The notes under the pieces: model-generated
The model's input: only the letters and a program-made list of their open reading frames with translations
Told to the model about the DNA's origin: nothing
Database searches by the model: none
DNA from: Candidatus Dojkabacteria bacterium
GTDB lineage: Bacteria > Patescibacteriota > Dojkabacteria > GCA-002793355
Assembly (NCBI GenBank): GCA_030583825.1
Contig: CP129477.1
Span: 247,252 to 311,251 of the forward strand
Reading direction: 5' to 3'
DNA: 64,000 nt
Shown: positions 6,961 through 18,983 of the stretch, one piece after another
Layout of the letters: the number at the start of each line of letters is the position of its first letter
How positions within the stretch are numbered: position 1 is the first letter of the stretch
Made by a program: the position numbers and the translations under genes

Positions 6961-7033
6961 GGTGGCTGTAGCTCAGGGGTAGAGCACCTGTCTGTGGAAC
7001 AGGATGTCGTGGGTTCGAAACCCATCAGCCACC
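6961..7033 (+). tRNA. tRNA-His (anticodon GTG) with a genome-encoded G-1
   Basis: Cloverleaf folded by hand. Acceptor GTGGCTG/CAGCCAC, with an extra 5' G pairing discriminator C73. D stem GCTC/GAGC. Anticodon stem CCTGT/ACAGG with loop CTGTGGA (U33, anticodon GUG). T arm GTGGG-TTCGAAA-CCCAT. CCA is not fully encoded. Confidence 0.85.
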
Positions 7034-7386
7034 CATTTTGGGATTTTTAGACAACAAAATTGTCATTTCTTCTTTACTGGTCGGTATTTTCTGAGGTTCT
7101 AAGGTTTGTATAGCCTTCTCAAATTTAGGTTTTGCTTTCTTAATTATTTCAAGCGGTTTATCAACTTCTATTTGAATTTGTAAATCCTTAATAACAATAT
7201 TTGCTCCAAGTTGTAACAGTATCTCATTCTTAATAGGTAAATCTCCCTTTTCAAATCTGTCTTTAGCTTCTTTTGCAAACTTAAATGACTTCTTAGCTTT
7301 CTCAGTCCATTCTGAATCGTCAGCTTCTTACTAACTTTATCCAATTTGTCTTTTTGTTGTTCAGCTTTAACCTTCTTAACACTCAT
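7025..7386 (-). pseudogene. Frameshifted small gene relic. A Lys/Glu-rich helical protein of about 125 aa if one frameshift is repaired.
   Basis: The ATG frame (MSVKKVKAEQQKDKLDKVSKKL) continues in another frame (ADDSEWTEKAKKSFKFAKEAKDRFEKGDLPIKNEILLQLGANIVIKDLQIQIEVDKPLEIIKK...) that has no start of its own. The stop codon lies inside the tRNA-His 3' end. Confidence 0.35.
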
Positions 7387-7411
7387 ATTTATACTTATAT
7401 ATTTTTTACAA

Positions 7412-10400
7412 TTATTGTGATTTTTCTATAATTGCTATCTCCTCGGGTGTTAGTTCATAAATCTTATAAACTCTTTGGTCAATTTGCTTACCTAAATTAC
7501 TAATTTGACTCTGTAAATTCCTCAATTCATTCTGTTTTGACTTAAACCAATTGAAAAGTTCTTCTGTCTTATCAAGTGTCATTTTTATTTTCTTTTGTTC
7601 TATAATCTCAACCAATTCATTCCAACCCATATCAATCAATTCACCTTTGATGGAAAACTTCCCATCAAAATGTAAATAGTTATTAAGAAACGATAATGAT
7701 TGAATATTTAACCCCTCATACAGCTCAATAGCTTTTTCTATTTGTTTATAAAGTAATGCTAAGTCTTGCTGTATATCTTTTGTAGGAATATTTATAGGTA
7801 TCTTTGAAAGGTTAACACTTTTGACCTCTGGGAAGACTCTTCCTTTTTCAGGAACTAAAAATCTATAAACAAAACCTATCAAGGTTGAATTTAATATTGT
7901 GGCTAATGATTCTAGGCTGATGCCTTCAGTTTTTAGGGTTAAATTATAAACATTGTTTAAGTTTAATCTACCTTGTACATCTACGGCACAAATAATCCTA
8001 TCCGCTGTTTGTCTAATTACTATCTTTTTCTGAGAGAAATCAAGGGAATTTCTCGGTTCAGCAAGCCATTCACCATAAGCAAGCCATCTACTGGAATCAG
8101 ATATGAAAAACTGCTTAATATCTCCGCCAATTATATACTTTTGGTAAGAGTCATCTTTTTTATCAATCCCATCGTAAATTCTCTTTCTTACAATGTCCTC
8201 ATCTTGAGCTGGTTTACCTTTTCCTTTCTGGTAGGGTTTTATTCCTACTGTTGGCTTTGCGACTTCATCTAATCTAACTGCTTTTGAAAAAATTTTATCA
8301 ATTATCTTTATTGAATTTTCATCATAGTCTAGATTAAACCCATTTGATATATTTTTCCTCCATGTATCCGAATTAGCTATACTTCTTTCTTGATTTATAA
8401 ATGATTCTAATTGTTTAATACTTCTAGTCTGTATTTCATAATGTTTTATAACTGATGACTTTTGACATACAAGAATTGATGTTTCTGCTGTTACTTCTTG
8501 AAATGCTTGATATTTTAGTAACTCAACTATAATAAGCTTGTTTTCAAGTAGAAGTTGTCGGATTTTTTCAAAATAGTGCATTGCAAGCCATGTTGAGGGA
8601 ACTATGAAACCAATGTATCCATTCTCCTTCACTAACATTAGTGACTTCTCAATGAATGCTATGTATGTTTCAAATTGATACTCTGTATGTTTATAATTCT
8701 CAGATATATACTTCTTCTCATTTGGTTTTAATTCAGCTCCCCATGGAGGGTTTCCAATAATTACATCAAACCCGCCGTCCTGCATAATATCCTTAAATTC
8801 AGCATTCCAGTTGAAAGCCTTGTTACCAGCAATTTCAGGGTCATCAATTAGTGAGTTACCACACTTAATATTCTTATCTAAATTCTGCAAAGGCTCACTG
8901 CTTCTAGCTGTCTTTAACCATAGTGCTAACTTAGTTATTTCAACACTTTCTTGATTCAGGTCAACACCGTATAGATTATTCAAAAGAATAGATTTATTGT
9001 TTTCAGCAGGGTTATAGTCAAAGAGGGTTTGTGACTCTCCTTTTGCCTGTTTCTCCGCAATTAAAGCGTCATACCTTGCTTTATACTCGTTTCTAAGAAA
9101 TGAATGGGCTTGATTTAAGAAAGCACCGCTACCACAAGCAGGGTCAAGTATCTTAATTGTGCTTAATTTGTCAGGGTATTCTTCTAAATATTTGCCTACA
9201 GTATTTTCTACAATGTATCGGGTTATGTATTCAGGAGTGTAGAATATCCCATCCTTTTTTCTTCTACCTTTCTTTTCAACTGATTTATCTACAGTTCCAA
9301 TAACAACTTTATCTCCTGATTCTGTAAGCAAGTTCCCACCTTGTTCAAGCTCAAGATGGATATTCTCTTTAATAGTCTCTAAATCGCTAATACTTTGCTC
9401 AAAAATATGACCTAAAATGTTTACATTCAAATCGGTTTCAAAGTCATACTCTGCAAGGTGCATTAAATGACTCCAAAAATCATCTTTAATTGATAGATTA
9501 TCCAGTAAATCATCAAAGGCAAATAACCCTCCATTGTAAGCATTTATAGGCGGTTTAACTCTGTTGTTTCCTTTATCAATTGCAATGAATAAACCCTTAA
9601 ATTCAGTCCATACTCTTTCGTCACTTGGAGAAAGTGAATTGATGGCTCTATCGTAGGTATTCTTAACGATATTTAGGGGGAGTAACGAGCTTGTATCTTC
9701 ACAAAACAAAGTGAATATAAATCTATCAAGTAACTTCTGGGTTTTCTCAAGTAATAATACTTTGTTTACAGTTGGGTTGTTTTGAGATAAATGATTAAGC
9801 AATCCCAAACGAACCTCTTTATATTCAGAATAGAACTTTTTAGTGATGTCTTGTTCTGCCTCAGTCGTGTCTTTGGCTAAAACATCAATAATGCTTTCCT
9901 TCTCTTTAGATATAAGGTTTTCTTGTGAGAGTAGGAAATAAAATCTTTTTAGTTCGTTTTCTTGAATTAAATCAATAACATCAAATTTTTCATAATACTC
10001 TTGAGTTTTATGCTTGTTATAAAGTCTAATCTCTTTGAAATTTGAAACTATAATCCAATTACAACCATCGTATTTAGTAGCGTATAAATAAGCCTGTTCA
10101 ATTGGTGTTAGCTTCTCAGAACCTCTATTTTGCCTTTTATCAAGCTGAGTTTTTGCATCTTTTAACTCAATTACCGCTTTAGTTAATTTTGTTTCTTTAC
10201 TAAACCAACCTAAGCTACCATCAGGCTCTTTACTATCGTTTTCAATTCTAGGGTGCTGTATGAGGGTCCATTCTTCATTCCCTGTGGTTACATCGCTATA
10301 ACCTAAAATAGCCTCAAAAAAGGTGCTTAAAAACTTCCCTTGCACACTTTTTTCCTTTGTCTTTTCAAGGTCACTATCTTTAAGGGCTTTTTGCCAACCT

Positions 10401-10517: not shown

Positions 10518-12269
10518 TTAAATACTCTCAAAGTAATTCCTTATACTTTGTGATAATAGCTTTTTTCTTTGAGTTAAAAATTCTGAATAGTTTAACTCGT
10601 AAAACTTATACGGTAGGGCATGATTCTTTAATACAGTTTCTAAATCAGTCCTACTGTATTGTTCAAATTCCTTAAAGTAATCCATTGGTGAGTTATCAGA
10701 AATTACAATGTTTGTTTTGTAGTCAAGATAAAGATAGTTCGCTACTTGATTCTGTTCTGTCTGTTCAACAATACCGATACCATTCAAATAATTCTTTGGG
10801 AATATATGGTGTTTATCCAAGCGAGCTTTCTTAACTGTAATTACAGGGTCAAACAGGTCTGATATTTTCTTAGTAGAAAATAGTAGGTCGACATTATTTC
10901 TAATCTGTGAAGCTATAAATACCAGCCATTGAGGATTCTTTGAATAAGATGATGTCAGCAATGCAGGCATCGTAATTTCCCAAAAGTCATTTGTTATTTC
11001 TGATTGTATTCTGCTATCCAATAGAGAAATAAACTCATCACCATTTTTTGCGTTTCTAATTAAAGCTAAATCGCTTTCAAAGTAGCTTTCTGATGAACCT
11101 GAATATCTTGATTTTAATGCTGACATTAAAAACCATCTTGAAACTATTCTTTCAAGCTTATGAAATTCAATATTAAACCTGTATTTGCCAATTAAGTAGA
11201 AGGCGTAAGAATAGAAGAAATTTGTTCTTGAGGTAATTAAATCACTATGCTTAAACCCTAACGACTGAATAAGATTTATATAATCGTGCCAAGTAGTATT
11301 ATCAAGTCCATTGGAGACATACTCTTCAAGCTCATTAAATCGCTTTTGTTTTAGTTCTTCAATAAATTCTCTTGTTTCAAAATCTCTACCTCGTAGAAGC
11401 GAGTAAACATCGCTCATTCTACCTCTGTTAAAACCATATCCAACTATAGCTCTAAGTATTTCTCCTGGTTTAACATCAATGAGATGATTAAATGATGAGT
11501 ACTGTAAACCCTGAGAATTTGGATTATTGCTTTGCATTGAGAAGTCCTCAATCTTCTTGCGTCCACTTTCCCAAAATACAGATAATAGGGTCAAAACAAA
11601 ATCAGATTGTTTTAGTACAACTCCTTTGCTGTTCACCCGAACAAAGATACTAGCAACCGTTTCTTCATCAACATTTTCTGCTATCTCTAAAATCGTAAAA
11701 TCATAAGACAGAATTGACCTTAAATGTGTAATGTTTTGAGAGATTATTTCTTCTTGTTCTTGTGTAGTGTCCTTATTAGCTTTTAACCTTTGAATAAACT
11801 CATTTATAAAGCGATACTCGCTAAAATCATTTTGAAACAAAAGGCTAATATCTGTAATGTATTCAACATCTCTATCAGTTGCGACATTGGAAACTTCAAA
11901 CTTCTCTAATAATGGATTAAAAGCTATTTTAATACGCTTTTCTTTATAATTTGCATCAATAATCGGAATCCCTTTTATTGTGGCAAATAGAGCGGTAAGT
12001 CTTTGTTGACCATCAATAATCAAGCTTTTTGCGTTACTTTCCTTTTTATCAGTGCCAATATCTTTTCTGTTATTGTCATTCACGTTCTCCCAAAAGAGAA
12101 GATAACCAACGGGATAACCTCTATAGATTGAGTCAAACAAATCTCTAACCTTGGTTGTATCCCACACGAAAGGACGTTGAATATCAGGTAAGGCTATCTT
12201 ACCGTGGTCAATATCGTTTATCAGTGTTTGAATCGGATATTGCGTAGTCTTAAAAATTGTTTTACTCAT
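10518..12269 (-). CDS. GmrSD-family type IV (modification-dependent) restriction endonuclease-like protein with DUF262 and DUF1524 domains
   Basis: DUF262 motifs (IQRPFVWD, IIDGQQRLTALF) and the DUF1524 His-Me finger (DKHHIFPKNYL). It lies 22 bp upstream of the type IIG gene on the same strand. Confidence 0.75.
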   Translation of the reverse strand: MSKTIFKTTQYPIQTLINDIDHGKIALPDIQRPFVWDTTKVRDLFDSIYRGYPVGYLLFWENVNDNNRKDIGTDKKESNAKSLIIDGQQRLTALFATIKGIPIIDANYKEKRIKIAFNPLLEKFEVSNVATDRDVEYITDISLLFQNDFSEYRFINEFIQRLKANKDTTQEQEEIISQNITHLRSILSYDFTILEIAENVDEETVASIFVRVNSKGVVLKQSDFVLTLLSVFWESGRKKIEDFSMQSNNPNSQGLQYSSFNHLIDVKPGEILRAIVGYGFNRGRMSDVYSLLRGRDFETREFIEELKQKRFNELEEYVSNGLDNTTWHDYINLIQSLGFKHSDLITSRTNFFYSYAFYLIGKYRFNIEFHKLERIVSRWFLMSALKSRYSGSSESYFESDLALIRNAKNGDEFISLLDSRIQSEITNDFWEITMPALLTSSYSKNPQWLVFIASQIRNNVDLLFSTKKISDLFDPVITVKKARLDKHHIFPKNYLNGIGIVEQTEQNQVANYLYLDYKTNIVISDNSPMDYFKEFEQYSRTDLETVLKNHALPYKFYELNYSEFLTQRKKLLSQSIRNYFESI

Positions 12270-12303: not shown

Positions 12304-12477
12304 CTATACCTTTGATTTTTCAATCAAAGCTTCAATATCTGATTTTTTAATCATATATTTTTTCCCAACTCTAAAGGCTTTAAGCTTTCCCTGTTTAATC
12401 CAACGGTAAATAGTCATATAAACGACTTTCAGCATTTCCGCCACTTCCTCAATTGTGTAGTATTTTTCTTCTTCCAT
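12304..12477 (-). CDS. Excisionase/AlpA-family helix-turn-helix DNA-binding protein (57 aa). Not in the ORF track.
   Basis: Manual translation gives MEEEKYYTIEEVAEMLKVVYMTIYRWIKQGKLKAFRVGKKYMIKKSDIEALIEKSKV. The pattern is the classic Xis/MerR-superfamily HTH. It lies 34 bp upstream of the DUF262 gene on the same strand. Confidence 0.65.
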   Translation of the reverse strand: MEEEKYYTIEEVAEMLKVVYMTIYRWIKQGKLKAFRVGKKYMIKKSDIEALIEKSKV

Positions 12478-12562
12478 TATTTATATTGTTTTGATTTGTT
12501 TAACATTATTTTACTTTTCAAGTATAATTCATTGTAAATAAAAATTAAAGATAAGTATAAAT

Positions 12563-13369
12563 ATGAGAAAAATATCTGAATTTATAACTAGTCCACTGGT
12601 GTTCAAAATCCTCATTGTATTAGTAATTATCCTAGCAGTAATAGCCTCTATATTCATTTATGAAAATCCAATTCATCCCTTAACTAGTCTGCTCAATTCA
12701 AACTATTTTGTCGCTTTAGTAACTGGTATTGCTGGAGCTGTAGCATTTTTAATATATTTTAAGCAGAAAGCTGACACTAAGCGTGATGCGGCTAAAACTA
12801 TCCTTGCTGAAATTACTAATTCAGAAAAAACAATCCAAGAAGTTAAGAATATTAAGAAGTTCTCAGGATATATGAATTTAGACCCTGACCCTTTGAAGTT
12901 TTACTTAGGCAATTTTAGCTGGAATCAGTATAAGTACCTTTTTATTGGAGATTTTGATTCGTACGAGTGGGAAAAGATAAACCAATATTTCTCACAGTGT
13001 GGTACTTTCAATGAAGCCATCAAAAATATTGCTAATTTATTGCCACAAAACATTGAATATAGGATGCAATTTCTTCAACAAGAACTAGCCAAAATAGCAA
13101 GTGAACAAGCAGATGAGGTAGCAAAACTTGAGAAACCTGATGGCAAAAATGATAAAACAAGACAAGAAAAAATCAAAGAGATAAGTGAAAAGTATGAGCA
13201 AAAGGGTAAGGATTTTGTTTTTGGATATATAGAAGCAGAAAAGACATCTCTAAAGTATGTGTATACACCTGCCAATGCATATGAACCATTGAATAGGGAA
13301 CTTGATAAAATTGATACTGAAATTAGTAAATCAAGTATTGGGAAAAAACTAGTTAAATTAGCTCGCTAG
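12563..13369 (+). CDS. Membrane protein with two N-terminal TM helices and a C-terminal coiled-coil domain. Unknown function.
   Basis: TM1 near residues 12-33 and TM2 near 49-67, followed by a charged helical region (QFLQQELAKIASEQADEVAKLEK...). It is transcribed divergently from the HTH-GmrSD-IIG operon and has its own TATAAT box. Confidence 0.5.
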   Translation: MRKISEFITSPLVFKILIVLVIILAVIASIFIYENPIHPLTSLLNSNYFVALVTGIAGAVAFLIYFKQKADTKRDAAKTILAEITNSEKTIQEVKNIKKFSGYMNLDPDPLKFYLGNFSWNQYKYLFIGDFDSYEWEKINQYFSQCGTFNEAIKNIANLLPQNIEYRMQFLQQELAKIASEQADEVAKLEKPDGKNDKTRQEKIKEISEKYEQKGKDFVFGYIEAEKTSLKYVYTPANAYEPLNRELDKIDTEISKSSIGKKLVKLAR

Positions 13370-13425
13370 ATTAAGGTAGTGGGTCATCATTGCGTTTCTA
13401 ATTTCACGCCACAATCCACCCCAAT

Positions 13426-13804
13426 TTAGTCTTTCTGCCGATTGAATATACTATCAAAGGGTTTCATTAGGGAATATTGGAGCATTCCATCTCTCAAAAA
13501 GAGGTTCTGACGTGTCAGTTTTATAATCTCTCTTTTTTCATCATGTTCAGAACCTAGAAAAAGCTCATACGAACGTGAAGCGAGCTCTAATAGCGTAGAT
13601 GCCGTTATATAATAGTCTTCATCTGCTTGCTCTAAGCGAGAAAGCTTATCTCTAAAATCCTGTTGTTCTGCTCTATATTTTTTATTAAATTTGTCATATT
13701 CTTCCTGAGTAATCCCCTATAAAACGTGCAAGTTCATGCCCACTGGCTTCAGTTTTTTCAACTATATAATCAAGAATTTTTCCAGATGTCTTTTCAATAG
13801 CCAT
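13426..13804 (-). pseudogene. Frameshifted gene relic. It encodes an HTH-like N-terminus plus a coiled-coil domain, about 125 aa if repaired.
   Basis: Frame 1 reads MAIEKTSGKILDYIVEKTEASGHELARFIGDYSGRI*. The continuation in another frame reads TQEEYDKFNKKYRAEQQDFRDKLSRLEQADEDYYITASTLLELASRSYELFLGSEHDEKREIIKLTRQNLFLRDGMLQYSLMKPFD. A single indel is implied. Confidence 0.35.
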
Positions 13805-13963: not shown

Positions 13964-14308
13964 ATGAAAGACTACTCAAAATATCTGAATAATAAATCTC
14001 CAGACGTTGCTTATATTTTGAATGAGCTTTTTGTAATTCTTGATAAGATTACAGCTAAAGACTACGAAGTAGAGGAAAAGCAAACCTCGCTGCATATCGT
14101 AAAAAGCTCTGCTTTTCTCGGTGTTCATTTTCTCAAAGACAAACTACGATTAAATATAGTGCTTAACCACGTAGCTACCTCGGATAAATTGCATAAATCT
14201 GAGCAGGTCTCTAAAAACCGATTTCATAACGAAATTGACTTGAGAACAGTCAAAGATTTATCTGATATAGAGATGCTCATTAAAGAAGCATATTTTCTAA
14301 AGACTTAG
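13964..14308 (+). CDS. Hypothetical protein (114 aa). Faint resemblance to a DUF5655-type small domain.
   Basis: ORF with normal composition. The family assignment is from memory only and weak. Confidence 0.4.
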   Translation: MKDYSKYLNNKSPDVAYILNELFVILDKITAKDYEVEEKQTSLHIVKSSAFLGVHFLKDKLRLNIVLNHVATSDKLHKSEQVSKNRFHNEIDLRTVKDLSDIEMLIKEAYFLKT

Positions 14309-15965: not shown

Positions 15966-17003
15966 TTATTCATTAAGTTGTTTTTGTATTTCTTGCACAG
16001 TCAGGGTAACAGCTTCTGGCGTCCAGTGAGTATCGTCAGTATGATATAAAAGAATATTCTCTCTCTGCTTTGTGAACAGCTCTACGGTATTGATTGATTT
16101 TACACCTTTTTGCTTGAGCACGTTATCTAGCCTATGCAAAAGTGTCGGTTGGGCTGAGAATGGTACTAAGTCAAAGTATATTGTTTCTTTGTTTGGTGTG
16201 GGAAGAAAAATGAAATCTATACCTTTTGATTCAAGTAAGTCGCGATAACCAACAATAATATCAGCCTGCTCGTTTATGAGTTCATCTGTATAATCTATGC
16301 GAGTACGTGGCCCAGTAAAGAAAAACATATCCTCTTCAATTGGAGATTGTGTTAATTCCGTGGGTTGGCTCATAACAAATTTGTGTAACTTTTTCTGCGC
16401 AGCATCTTTTGCGAGCCTATCTCCATACGTTAATACTTCTGAGAGAATGGGATAATTAGCAAGTAATTGAATATACTGAGACTGTTTATTTTCCGAAAGG
16501 GGCTTTAATGTTTCGATATTTCGCTCGACGATAGAAAAAACAACAACTTTTGGCTTTTTAATTAGTCCGTTATTAAGAACCAAAAAGAATTGATTGAGGT
16601 CTCCGCTAGCAATTTGGTACGTCGTTTTTCCCGTAAGTTTTTGTAATTGAGGTGCAATTGTATCCTCTTGAGTAAGCCCCGTGCCTGCAATAAAAGAGTC
16701 ACCGGAAATGACGATATCAATATTTTCAGGAACTGACTCATTACGAAATCCATACTTATCTGTTTGCCACACAACAGGCTTTGGAACAGAATAATCCGTA
16801 TTATTGGCAAGATCACCCCTTTCAATCATTTCTACGCGTTGATTTGGATAAAAGTACCCAATACTGGTTCTACTCTTAAATCTTGCAAGACTTTCCCATG
16901 TACGAAACGACCAAAAGTTAATGGGTAAAACGAGATTGAGAAAAACTGGCGCGAAAATAACCGGAATGAGGAAGATTATTACTTTTATCAGAAATTGCTT
17001 CAT
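15966..17003 (-). CDS. SGNH/GDSL-like hydrolase with an N-terminal TM anchor. A DltD/AlgJ/AlgX-like partner of the MBOAT protein.
   Basis: A GDS block (VISGDSFIAGTG). It is immediately downstream of the MBOAT gene, with a 3-nt gap. Confidence 0.45.
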   Translation of the reverse strand: MKQFLIKVIIFLIPVIFAPVFLNLVLPINFWSFRTWESLARFKSRTSIGYFYPNQRVEMIERGDLANNTDYSVPKPVVWQTDKYGFRNESVPENIDIVISGDSFIAGTGLTQEDTIAPQLQKLTGKTTYQIASGDLNQFFLVLNNGLIKKPKVVVFSIVERNIETLKPLSENKQSQYIQLLANYPILSEVLTYGDRLAKDAAQKKLHKFVMSQPTELTQSPIEEDMFFFTGPRTRIDYTDELINEQADIIVGYRDLLESKGIDFIFLPTPNKETIYFDLVPFSAQPTLLHRLDNVLKQKGVKSINTVELFTKQRENILLYHTDDTHWTPEAVTLTVQEIQKQLNE

Positions 17004-17006
17004 ACG

Positions 17007-18455
17007 CTAAAACTGAAAATATATAAATTGCTGAGCATTTCCCCAGAAAACAAAAATTAGTAAAAGAAGGAAATAATAAAATCCTATGCGGACAACTTTT
17101 GGCATTCGAAGCGGCAATTTCTCGATAGCATATTCCTGTTCACGGCCGATCCACTCAATAATAAAGAAGAATATTGTCACAATAAAGAGACTAACGGGCA
17201 ATATCTGCGGAATACTAAAGAAATTCGGGCGAAATATTCCTTGAATATATTCAAATGCTTTCGTAATACTTTCTGCTCTAAAAAATATCCATGCAAACAA
17301 TGTCAAAAGAAATGTTACTGTCATGTTGAGAACTTCTTTAGTCGAAGGGAACAATTTTCCTTGCGCAACAATTTCGGGATCTTCTTTGGTCTTCTTGAAG
17401 ATAATGAGTGGCACAATATATATTGCATTGAGCAATCCCCACACAACAAACGTCCAATTTGCGCCGTGCCACAATCCACTGAGCAAAAATACAATAAAAA
17501 TATTTATAACCTGCTTAGGGAGTGACACTCTATTTCCTCCAAGCGGAATATATACATAGTCCCGAAACCAGGAAGACAAAGAAATATGCCACCGGTTCCA
17601 AAACTCTGAGATATTTCGTGAGAAATATGGAAACGCAAAGTTTCGTCTCAGTTCAAAGCCAAAGAGCCTAGCGACACCGAGAGCAATATCTGTATACCCT
17701 GAAAAATCCCCATAAATCTGAAATGCAAATAAGAGCACTCCCAACATAAGCGTACTTCCGGAATAACCTGCGACATCGGCAAAAATCATATTTACGTATA
17801 TAGCGGCAGTATCGGCAATAACTACTTTCTTAAAAAGTCCCCACAAAATCTGACGCAGCCCATTTACTGCCTGTGAATATTCAAATACCCTTTTAGCCTG
17901 AAACTGTGGAAGCAAAGAGACAGCTCTTTCTATCGGGCCCGCCACAAGCTGTGGAAAGAAACTAATAAAAGCAGCAAATGATATCAAGTCTTTAGAAGGG
18001 CTCAGCTTCTTTTTATAAATATCAATCGTATAGCTCAAAGATTGGAAGGTGTAAAAGCTAATACCCACCGGAAGAATAATGTTAAGCGTTCGCGCTTCAA
18101 GCGGGTATCCCAAAAAAGTAAAAGCTGTGACAAAACTATCTATAAAGAAGTTAAAGTATTTAAAGAATCCCAGCAGAGAGAGATTTACTATGACCGACGC
18201 AGCAAGGAATAGCTTTCTTCTCGTAGGATCTTCCTGCTTATCAATGATATTGCCGATGAGATAATCCCATAAGGTGCTAAATCCGATCAGAAAAAGAAAT
18301 TTCCAGTCCCACCAGCCATAGAAAATATAACTGACGACAATCAGAAATACATTCTGCAATCTGAGGTTTCTTTGCATTACAAACCAATATAGGACAAAGA
18401 CAATGGGCAGAAAAATTGCAAACTCTACGGAATTAAACAACATAGTTTCTCGCAA
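17007..18455 (-). CDS. MBOAT-family membrane-bound O-acyltransferase (DltB/AlgI-like)
   Basis: A 482-aa multi-TM protein with the conserved His region (LSGLWHGANWTF) typical of AlgI/DltB. Confidence 0.8.
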   Translation of the reverse strand: MRETMLFNSVEFAIFLPIVFVLYWFVMQRNLRLQNVFLIVVSYIFYGWWDWKFLFLIGFSTLWDYLIGNIIDKQEDPTRRKLFLAASVIVNLSLLGFFKYFNFFIDSFVTAFTFLGYPLEARTLNIILPVGISFYTFQSLSYTIDIYKKKLSPSKDLISFAAFISFFPQLVAGPIERAVSLLPQFQAKRVFEYSQAVNGLRQILWGLFKKVVIADTAAIYVNMIFADVAGYSGSTLMLGVLLFAFQIYGDFSGYTDIALGVARLFGFELRRNFAFPYFSRNISEFWNRWHISLSSWFRDYVYIPLGGNRVSLPKQVINIFIVFLLSGLWHGANWTFVVWGLLNAIYIVPLIIFKKTKEDPEIVAQGKLFPSTKEVLNMTVTFLLTLFAWIFFRAESITKAFEYIQGIFRPNFFSIPQILPVSLFIVTIFFFIIEWIGREQEYAIEKLPLRMPKVVRIGFYYFLLLLIFVFWGNAQQFIYFQF

Positions 18456-18647
18456 GCAGACTCAAATAAACTCCTTGTCACGAGGGTGATAATATGACAA
18501 TACAAATGACAAGAACTCTTCTTTATGATGACCTTATAATAAGTCCCATAAGATACGGATAGTTATATCAGAAAGTTTATATGTGAACAAATACCCTGTG
18601 AGAACACAAAAGGAAGGGAGCTAAGTTTGCTCAGGTAAAAAGCCTAG

Positions 18648-18983
18648 TTAAATGTCTTCGCGGGCAGCTTTTATCATTTTGTTAAGTCTTTTTGAGTCAA
18701 TTACTTCATCATAAAGGTTAATTCCTCTTTTATCTGCTGCATTAAGAAGGGTTAACAATAGCTTAATTGACGCAAATTTCAAGCGTTTTACAGTTATGAA
18801 GTATCGAATAAGTTCTAGTCTAAATACATCTTTTCTTGAGAATAGCCTGCGTCCGGTTTTACTTCTTCTCGTTTCGATGAGTCCGACATTTTCGTAGTTA
18901 ATAAGCGTTTTTGGCTTGATATTGAGGAATTCTGCAACAAGCCCCGTAGGGTACCTTGCGCGATCGTCTAAATCTGTTTTCAT
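18648..18983 (-). CDS. MerR-family transcriptional regulator
   Basis: An N-terminal MerR HTH (YPTGLVAEFLNIKPKTLINYENVGLI...GRRLFSRKDVFRL). Confidence 0.7.
   Translation of the reverse strand: MKTDLDDRARYPTGLVAEFLNIKPKTLINYENVGLIETRRSKTGRRLFSRKDVFRLELIRYFITVKRLKFASIKLLLTLLNAADKRGINLYDEVIDSKRLNKMIKAAREDI

Follow-up and report, generated by a model that had tools for sequence, protein, structure and literature searches.

The control (C) proteins of type II restriction-modification (RM) systems, such as C.PvuII and C.AhdI, have an Xre/HTH_3 helix-turn-helix (HTH) fold, bind as symmetric dimers to inverted-repeat C-boxes and co-evolve with their RM genes. BldC of Streptomyces, a chromosomal global developmental regulator of actinomycetes, is the founding member of the single-domain MerR-like winged HTH (wHTH) regulators and acts both as an activator and as a repressor. 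On DNA, BldC occupies 9-bp direct repeats about one helical turn apart as head-to-tail dimers or oligomers, and Arg30 reads the one G of each unit (PMC5859096). Members of Pfam HTH_17 and TIGR01764 include excisionases, or recombination directionality factors (RDFs), such as Pukovnik Xis (4J2N) and RdfS of ICEMlSymR7A, which are encoded on integrative elements together with a site-specific recombinase, pair with tyrosine integrases and bind att regions. Here we describe a 57-aa HTH gene of this family in a 64,000-nucleotide stretch of contig CP129477.1 from Candidatus Dojkabacteria bacterium (referred to as the window), in which it heads a restriction operon within a low-GC defence island at a tRNA-His gene, explained here as a domesticated element with decayed mobility genes. 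In a family of integrative elements that occurs mainly in Patescibacteria, or the Candidate Phyla Radiation (CPR), the gene belongs to the conserved backbone and is proximal to the promoter. Its product is probably a backbone regulator, which binds a tandem repeat over the -10/+1 of its own promoter and autoregulates an operon of HTH gene, cargo genes and large serine recombinase (LSR) gene.

The earlier note on this DNA had placed an excisionase-family gene at 12304..12477. The open reading frame (ORF) is present there on the minus strand, and the first 53 residues as quoted are correct. The gene had been called unannotated, which holds for the 60-aa ORF track only; NCBI already carries the identical protein under a generic HTH name ('MAG: helix-turn-helix domain-containing protein [Candidatus Dojkabacteria bacterium]', found by protein search). 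The family assignment stood up to the HMM comparison. Residues 6-55 match profile positions 1-50 of 51 of Pfam HTH_17 (PF12728) with 69.7 bits (E 2.5e-19), compared with a gathering score of 27. NCBIfam TIGR01764 'excise' is matched over profile positions 1-49 of 49 with 62.5 bits, compared with a curated cut-off of 28.8; this is a domain model, and a match to it does not establish excisionase function.

The protein search gave 54 homologues, and the family alignment contains 16 invariant columns. Between the gene and a 96%-identical relative, 15 synonymous differences stand beside a single non-synonymous one (dN/dS 0.01), and other pairs in the family give dN/dS values of 0.03-0.08; it is a genuine gene, and purifying selection on it is strong. 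Reading it as a chance ORF, or as a pseudogene in decay that has no product, would fit the short length of 57 aa and the AT-rich island around the gene, which holds other pseudogenes. However, the family scores lie far over the cut-offs, there are hundreds of homologues with the invariant columns, dN/dS stays at 0.01-0.08 and the fold is predicted with confidence. The probability of such an explanation is negligible, and a spurious ORF is effectively refuted.

The AlphaFold2 (AF2) model of the 57-aa protein has a predicted local distance difference test (pLDDT) value of 92.6 and the topology b1-a1-a2-b2-b3-a3. In a Foldseek comparison with the PDB, the best match is BldC (6AMA/6AMK), with a template modelling (TM) score of 0.79-0.82, a root-mean-square deviation of 1.0-1.5 Å and 33-35% identity, followed by Pukovnik Xis (TM 0.72) and then RacA. 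BldC is also the sole match in a sequence-profile search of the PDB. The product of the ORF is a DNA-binding protein with a single winged-helix domain of the BldC/Xis type. Like BldC, it falls in the size class of about 60-70 aa, and neither protein has a dimerisation or effector domain; as a 57-aa wHTH that lacks a coiled-coil or effector domain and reaches a TM of 0.82 to the BldC chains, it has the fold of the BldC-like structural class. It does not belong to the BldC subfamily itself, for which the NCBIfam model NF033787 (HTH_BldC) gives 27.3 bits, under the curated cut-off of 77. The Arg aligned to BldC Arg30 is R25, located in the YRW segment, and it is invariant across the HTH family. 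Unlike BldC, the protein is encoded by a mobile-element gene in CPR bacteria.

Related loci (given L numbers below) were collected by pattern scans, which found 55 genome loci and 211 metagenome loci, 80 of the latter being retrieved; the ORF table holds 115 unique loci, and Pfam-annotated contexts were used beside it. A conserved block was first seen in the upstream alignment of the closest relatives. It is a 20-mer composed of two tandem 10-bp units, with the family consensus AATGTTAAAT followed by AATG(T/A)TAAAT, and it lies within 1 kb upstream of the HTH gene in 85 of 101 unique loci. In 71 loci, 21-41 nt separate the start of the motif from the ATG, most often 30 nt. In another 14 it is found 394-884 nt upstream, with one extra gene inserted before the HTH gene, and remains at the operon head. 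Over 89 loci, 18 of the 20 positions are at least 87% conserved and both G's are invariant, the motif positions being far more conserved than the flanking -35 TTG (85-87%). Exact copies of the 10-mer number 145 upstream of HTH genes, compared with 30 on both strands of the remaining ~0.95 Mb. The window holds only one copy of the motif, at 12498..12517.

This repeat coincides with a promoter. With a 17-nt spacer, the -10 element AATAAT corresponds to motif positions 8-13, and the promoter scan calls TTGATT-17-AATAAT in L013. On the opposite strand of the window, the scan places a sigma-70-like promoter for the divergent 268-aa gene, whose -35 falls inside the repeat, and L074 keeps this arrangement as TTAACA-18-TATAAT. 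In a possible parallel to the sites of BldC, the promoter of the HTH gene carries a tandem direct repeat with one invariant G per unit; the candidate unit has 10 bp (AATGNTAAAT), whereas the BldC unit has 9 bp (AATTNNNNC). An inverted-repeat operator had been expected in 12478-12562, and it is absent, the tandem repeat of 10-bp units being present instead. Throughout 12440..12600 we found no convincing inverted repeat but only weak AT-rich pairs, the best of which has 12 nt at 83%, and this candidate was dropped in favour of the direct repeat.

Two further occurrences of the motif or its parts were noticed. A single unit AATGTTAAAC is found at nt +423 to +429 within six recombinase genes (L034 12921, L054 13289, L083 1477, L087 1393, L099 1793 and L150 3706), where it may reflect a conserved peptide or an extra binding unit. 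The 20-mer also has 19 exact matches in viral contigs. None stands beside an HTH or LSR homologue; we take these matches as chance in AT-rich viral DNA, and they lend no support to a phage nature of the element.

The loci share an architecture around the HTH gene. The named lineages are almost all CPR, including Curtiss-, Levy-, Woese-, Shapiro- and Roizmanbacteria, WWE3, Peribacteria, Saccharibacteria and Parcubacteria; other records bear unconfirmed titles such as 'uncultured Pseudomonadales'. The recurrent layout consists of a ~350-aa gene, a 54-61-aa gene, a SpoVG-like gene of 97 aa, a ~390-aa gene, the HTH gene, the cargo and an LSR gene of ~500 aa, and it is reduced to HTH, cargo and LSR in the closest relatives, L005 and L009. 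A comparison of homologous islands had been suggested in order to look for an integrase. Of 29 loci with at least 6 kb of downstream sequence, 24 have an LSR behind the HTH gene on the same strand, counting divergent LSRs confirmed by Pfam. Recombinase and Zn-ribbon domains are present in these related recombinases, which are LSRs of ~500 aa. An intact LSR gene overlaps with its 3' end a tRNA gene on the opposite strand in 23 loci; the tRNA is tRNA-Asn (GTT) in 17 and tRNA-His, -Arg, -Ser, -Glu, -Lys or -Pro in the others. The geometry at tRNA-His in the window is that of these 23 loci. Targeting of tRNA genes is usually linked to tyrosine integrases.

The four genes upstream of the HTH gene in canonical elements (for example, L013 5271-8017 and L010 1820-4517) form a conserved module, which may belong to the mobile unit. 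Only its ~390-aa protein matches anything, and this match is weak (phrog_702, a phage replication protein, E 4e-4).

The cargo between HTH and LSR genes is exchangeable. Among 88 loci, the first cargo gene is N6_Mtase in 20, N6_N4_Mtase in 19 and Tsp45I in 6, with EcoRI, HindIII and others also present, and the second cargo gene is ResIII in 12 and Methylase_S in 6. In 52 loci, the stop of the HTH gene and the start of the gene behind it share 4 nt. When pairs of loci with at least 90% HTH identity were compared, the median identity was 0.93 for the LSR and 0.82 for the ~390-aa backbone protein, and the first cargo gene was unrelated in 44% of them. L074 illustrates this pattern, with a 96%-identical HTH and the same divergent membrane-protein gene, but heading EcoRI R and M genes. 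In L033, the HTH gene is followed directly by the LSR and the tRNA gene, with no cargo. The identity of the HTH tracks the LSR and the backbone protein, not the cargo.

In the window, the string behind the HTH gene consists of a DUF262 gene and a type IIG RM gene (Table 1), all on the same strand, with gaps of 34 nt from HTH to DUF262 and 22 nt from DUF262 to RM. The placement of the HTH at the head of the nuclease/RM genes, as described earlier, is borne out. No terminator-like site was found in either gap, and the sole minus-strand terminator-like match 3' of the HTH gene, at 9141..9126, is within the RM coding sequence. We infer that the three genes are co-transcribed. Orthologues of the type IIG RM enzyme also lie behind related HTH genes in L005 and L009.

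Such an arrangement could suggest a cargo-specific controller, analogous to the C proteins, which evolved with this nuclease/RM pair and times its expression. A small HTH gene directly upstream of co-oriented RM genes, often translationally coupled to them, would be expected from such a controller, the first cargo gene mostly encodes a methyltransferase or a restriction enzyme, and there is a sub-threshold resemblance to MAD1 of 44 bits. As in C-protein systems, a small HTH gene heads an RM operon, and the proposed autoregulatory loop could delay or limit the expression of the restriction enzyme after transfer. However, the HTH sequence is independent of the cargo type, near-identical HTHs head EcoRI R-M in one locus and DUF262 with type IIG in another, and the HTH also occurs with non-RM cargo or with none. 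Unlike C proteins, the protein is a MerR-like wHTH associated with a direct repeat, and it remains the same when one RM cargo is exchanged for another. It has a MerR/BldC-like fold and no match to HTH_3, and no C-box-like inverted repeat was found in 12440..12600; it also misses the cut-offs of MAD1 and, with its RM enzyme, of MAD2. We consider a cargo-specific controller very unlikely. The regulatory role that the earlier note had proposed for the nuclease/RM genes is the best-supported role, but it is not tied to these genes, as the HTH tracks the backbone and the LSR and a 96%-identical copy heads EcoRI R-M.

MAD1 belongs to the methylation-associated defence system (MADS), and, like it, the HTH is a small HTH_17-like protein beside a DNA methyltransferase in a defence locus. 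The MAD1 model NF047737 is the second-best NCBIfam match (E 1.5e-11). We rejected membership in MADS: the HTH reaches 44.3 bits, compared with a cut-off of 80, the RM enzyme reaches 56.3, compared with 720 for MAD2, and the other MADS genes are absent.

On the basis of the fold, the repeat and the element architecture, we propose a backbone regulator that works as follows. Two protomers would bind head-to-tail on the two 10-bp units, each unit offering its invariant G. The units overlap the -10/+1 of the HTH gene's own promoter, and this binding would autoregulate, and most likely repress, the whole operon of HTH, cargo and recombinase. A burst of expression may then occur when the element enters a naive cell, with low expression later. 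RdfS provides a precedent, as this HTH_17 protein represses its own promoter and binds attP (PMC11963761); the autorepression proposed here would be of the same kind. In the window, where the recombinase is reduced to a C-terminal stub, the HTH would be left to control the DUF262 and type IIG RM operon. The divergent 268-aa membrane-protein gene is probably controlled as well, because its -35 lies within the same repeat.

Several points weigh against such a regulator. The link between protein and repeat is drawn from their co-occurrence and from the analogy with BldC, by which we infer the binding, and a different factor could occupy the repeat, or the repeat could represent an unusually constrained promoter. 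In the window, unit 1 is degenerate (AAAGTAAAAT), the -35 is poor (AATGAA) and the promoter scan called no minus-strand promoter at the site of the HTH gene. In canonical elements, part of the motif lies within the 3' end of the ~390-aa gene before it, and some of its conservation could be coding; yet the motif is kept in loci without the ~390-aa gene. The regulation may have either sign, BldC doing both, and repression is presumed here. Moreover, the LSR may have decayed at any time, and purifying selection measured between loci is no proof that the gene is still needed in this genome.

The island itself stands out by its composition. Whereas GC is ~0.40 outside, it is down to 0.31-0.33 from ~7000 to ~14300; the drop starts beside tRNA-His and therefore indicates an island at the tRNA gene. 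Two recombinase remnants lie in it. The first, at 7028..7321, is out of frame with a 72-aa ORF at 7169..7387 and corresponds to residues 483-575 of the 613-aa protein of L039, which carries the Pfam Resolvase and Recombinase domains (32% identity, E 3e-12, blastp against LSRs from related loci). Along the LSR HMM, the fragment is colinear with the C-terminal tail. A word-indexed homologue search with this tRNA-adjacent fragment gave zero matches, the assignment as LSR coming only from the blastp comparison with LSRs of related loci. As the fragment reads into tRNA-His, the element is of the LSR type at a tRNA gene, and the recombinase gene here is a non-functional stub. The second remnant, at 13364..13728, matches the LSR of L009 in tblastn, with 58% identity at residues 414-503 and 69% at residues 505-530 (joint E 5e-33).

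The two remnants are from two different LSR subfamilies, suggesting a tandem of two elements, both decayed. L009 shows synteny to the window, with an LSR, an opposite-strand gene, the HTH gene, one gene and the same type IIG RM enzyme in order. This synteny suggests that the remnant at 13364..13728 is derived from an older element upstream in the tandem, and judging from sequence comparison it probably belongs there. The statement that no integrase remains holds in so far as the 64-kb window has no intact recombinase ORF, but the LSR pseudogene remnants at 7028..7321 and 13364..13728 are still there. A mobile element with a decayed recombination module had been supposed, and these two remnants, one reading into tRNA-His, agree with it. 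The label 'Xis/AlpA' had implied a tyrosine-integrase partner, and in this respect it fails, the recombination remnants being serine recombinases. A tyrosine-integrase or AlpA-type island was rejected, as no such gene was found and both remnants are serine recombinases. A displaced tRNA 3' fragment, which would form a direct repeat marking the left end, was sought in the window and 11 related loci, and nothing rose above chance; its absence is expected for integration by a serine recombinase. A search through the flanking host proteins found no empty tRNA-His site, and all contigs recovered by it are 100% identical to the window.

These data also bear on whether the HTH is the excisionase of the element's LSR, which would leave it in the window as a functionless fossil or a gene kept by chance, and which is compatible with a role in regulation. 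The protein has the fold of the excisionase family, it is co-inherited with the LSR in 24 of 29 loci with its identity tracking that of the LSR, and the cargo-free L033 retains exactly HTH, LSR and tRNA gene. RDFs of the HTH_17 family exist, including Pukovnik Xis and RdfS, the latter binding attP and autoregulating (PMC11963761). However, both precedents work with tyrosine integrases. A passage in PMC11795197 describes the characterised LSR RDFs as integrase cofactors, which are predicted to bind the recombinase in a similar manner without a common structural theme, and DBD2 is the LSR region that was used as bait to find RDFs (PMC12286644). Unlike the att-binding HTH_17 RDFs, the HTH has an LSR as its partner, and the promoter holds the only candidate site that is conserved, 2-5 kb away from the tRNA junction; a second copy of the motif was not found near the element ends, of which the left one was not defined. 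The HTH is also intact and under strong purifying selection in a lineage (the window and L005) whose LSR is truncated.

An RDF would need an active recombinase in the same element, which is present at the family level (24 of 29 loci); the window offers only the two LSR remnants and, unlike the elements of HTH_17 RDFs, no intact recombinase. We consider this explanation rather unlikely, although an RDF role is possible in intact relatives and moot in the window. A separate comparison concerns the IS607-family serine transposases, which, like the elements described here, bring a MerR/HTH_17-type DNA-binding module alongside serine-recombinase chemistry. In IS607 the N-terminal MerR-like HTH is fused to the catalytic domain, whereas here a separate 57-aa protein accompanies ~500-aa LSRs. 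Membership in IS607 was rejected, the match being weak (23.5 bits compared with a cut-off of 110).

Returning to the backbone regulator, we notice that the protein family itself is ordinary, and that the element family and the protein-repeat module are the more interesting by-product. The HTH gene is a reliable marker of a compact recurrent element, composed of the HTH gene, an RM cargo slot, a serine recombinase and a tRNA gene. CPR bacteria, or Patescibacteria, are thought to depend heavily on RM for defence, and, to our knowledge, their mobile elements are barely characterised. Elements of this kind appear to shuttle and swap RM systems among CPR bacteria. A limited literature set on CPR, serine recombinases, RM and HTH_17 elements contained no account of such a CPR element family, which is no proof of its novelty.

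If the protein and the repeat form a working switch, it would be a minimal unit, consisting of a protein of 57 aa and a site of 20 bp, which could explain a transient expression of RM cargo and recombinase on arrival and would offer a handle for finding and dating such islands. More speculatively, the HTH and its 20-bp tandem-repeat site might be the universal control module of undescribed CPR-wide integrative elements, with a tRNA-targeting LSR and an exchangeable RM slot. Since protein and site are more conserved than the recombinase, a resident copy could then act in trans on incoming or tandem elements, as immunity or cross-talk, and the protein might double as a DNA-binding directionality factor of the LSR. 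Directionality by DNA binding would be a mode not established for LSR RDFs, and we regard this broader picture as unlikely.

Table 1. Positions of the features discussed, in window coordinates unless a related locus is named
Feature	Position	Strand	Remarks
tRNA-His (GTG)	6962..7034	+	Integration site of the island; ARAGORN
LSR remnant 1	7028..7321	-	C-terminal ~97 codons without a start; lies just behind the RM gene; reads into the tRNA-His 3' end
MmeI/Eco57I-like type IIG RM enzyme, 1027 aa	7412..10495	-	Second cargo gene; Pfam MmeI_N, MmeI_hel, MmeI_Mtase, Eco57I, N6_Mtase, TaqI_C
GmrSD_N/DUF262 protein, 583 aa	10518..12269	-	First cargo gene; Pfam PF03235, E 4.6e-32
Small HTH gene (ORF under study)	12477→12304	-	ATG start, 57 codons and stop; translation MEEEKYYTIEEVAEMLKVVYMTIYRWIKQGKLKAFRVGKKYMIKKSDIEALIEKSKV
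Repeat motif, window copy (candidate operator)	12498..12517	-	AAAGTAAAAT followed by AATGTTAAAC; 40 nt upstream of the ATG; overlaps -10 AATAAT at 12505..12510
Divergent sigma-70-like promoter of the 268-aa gene	12500..12528	+	TTAACA-17-TATAAT; promoter scan, 11/12 matches; -35 inside the repeat motif
Predicted membrane protein, 268 aa	12563..13369	+	ORF; divergent from the HTH gene
LSR remnant 2	13364..13728	-	Frameshifted C-terminal part; frame break ~13441
DUF5655 gene	13964..14308	+	Pfam; far edge of the island
LSR/tRNA overlaps, examples from related loci	L010 7959-9495; L020 13310-14845; L122 12070-13605; L042 14232-15790		

Among the neighbours of the HTH gene, the 268-aa membrane protein has no significant family match. 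Its homologue in L074 (274 aa, 228-1052) occupies the same position beside the 96%-identical HTH, though the cargo differs; being conserved in the two closest loci, the 268-274-aa protein may belong to the left arm of the element. At the far edge, the DUF5655 gene has a longer counterpart of 301 aa in L116 (13653-14555), located after the RM cargo, which hints at a recurring association with these elements. Just beyond the island, at 15966-18983 on the minus strand, lies an operon encoding a MerR/HspR-like regulator (111 aa), an MBOAT/DltB-like O-acyltransferase (482 aa), an AlgX-like SGNH protein (345 aa) and a family-less 519-aa protein. This operon appears unrelated to the HTH gene.

A 42-nt imperfect inverted repeat is found at 7382-7423 and 12526-12567, with 74% complementarity and 16 identical nt at its core, TAAGTATAAATATGAG. 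In one arm this core terminates in the start codon of the 72-aa ORF at 7387 on the minus strand, in the other in that of the 268-aa gene at 12563 on the plus strand, and the two arms enclose the block of HTH, DUF262 and RM genes. Before the DUF262 start at 12269 stands a similar sequence, AAGTATAAG...ATGAG, and the core is not conserved in L074. The repeat may have arisen by chance (rough expectation ~0.05) or may be a duplicated initiation region.

In independent metagenome assemblies of this genome, contigs are interrupted at the HTH gene, in its 5' end: L173 stops at 12471, and L180, assembled from the same sample, begins at 12452, the two sharing 20 nt. Contig L176 breaks at the junction of tRNA and island (~7040). 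The breaks at ~12452-12471 and ~7040 hint at repeated sequence or population heterogeneity at these joints.

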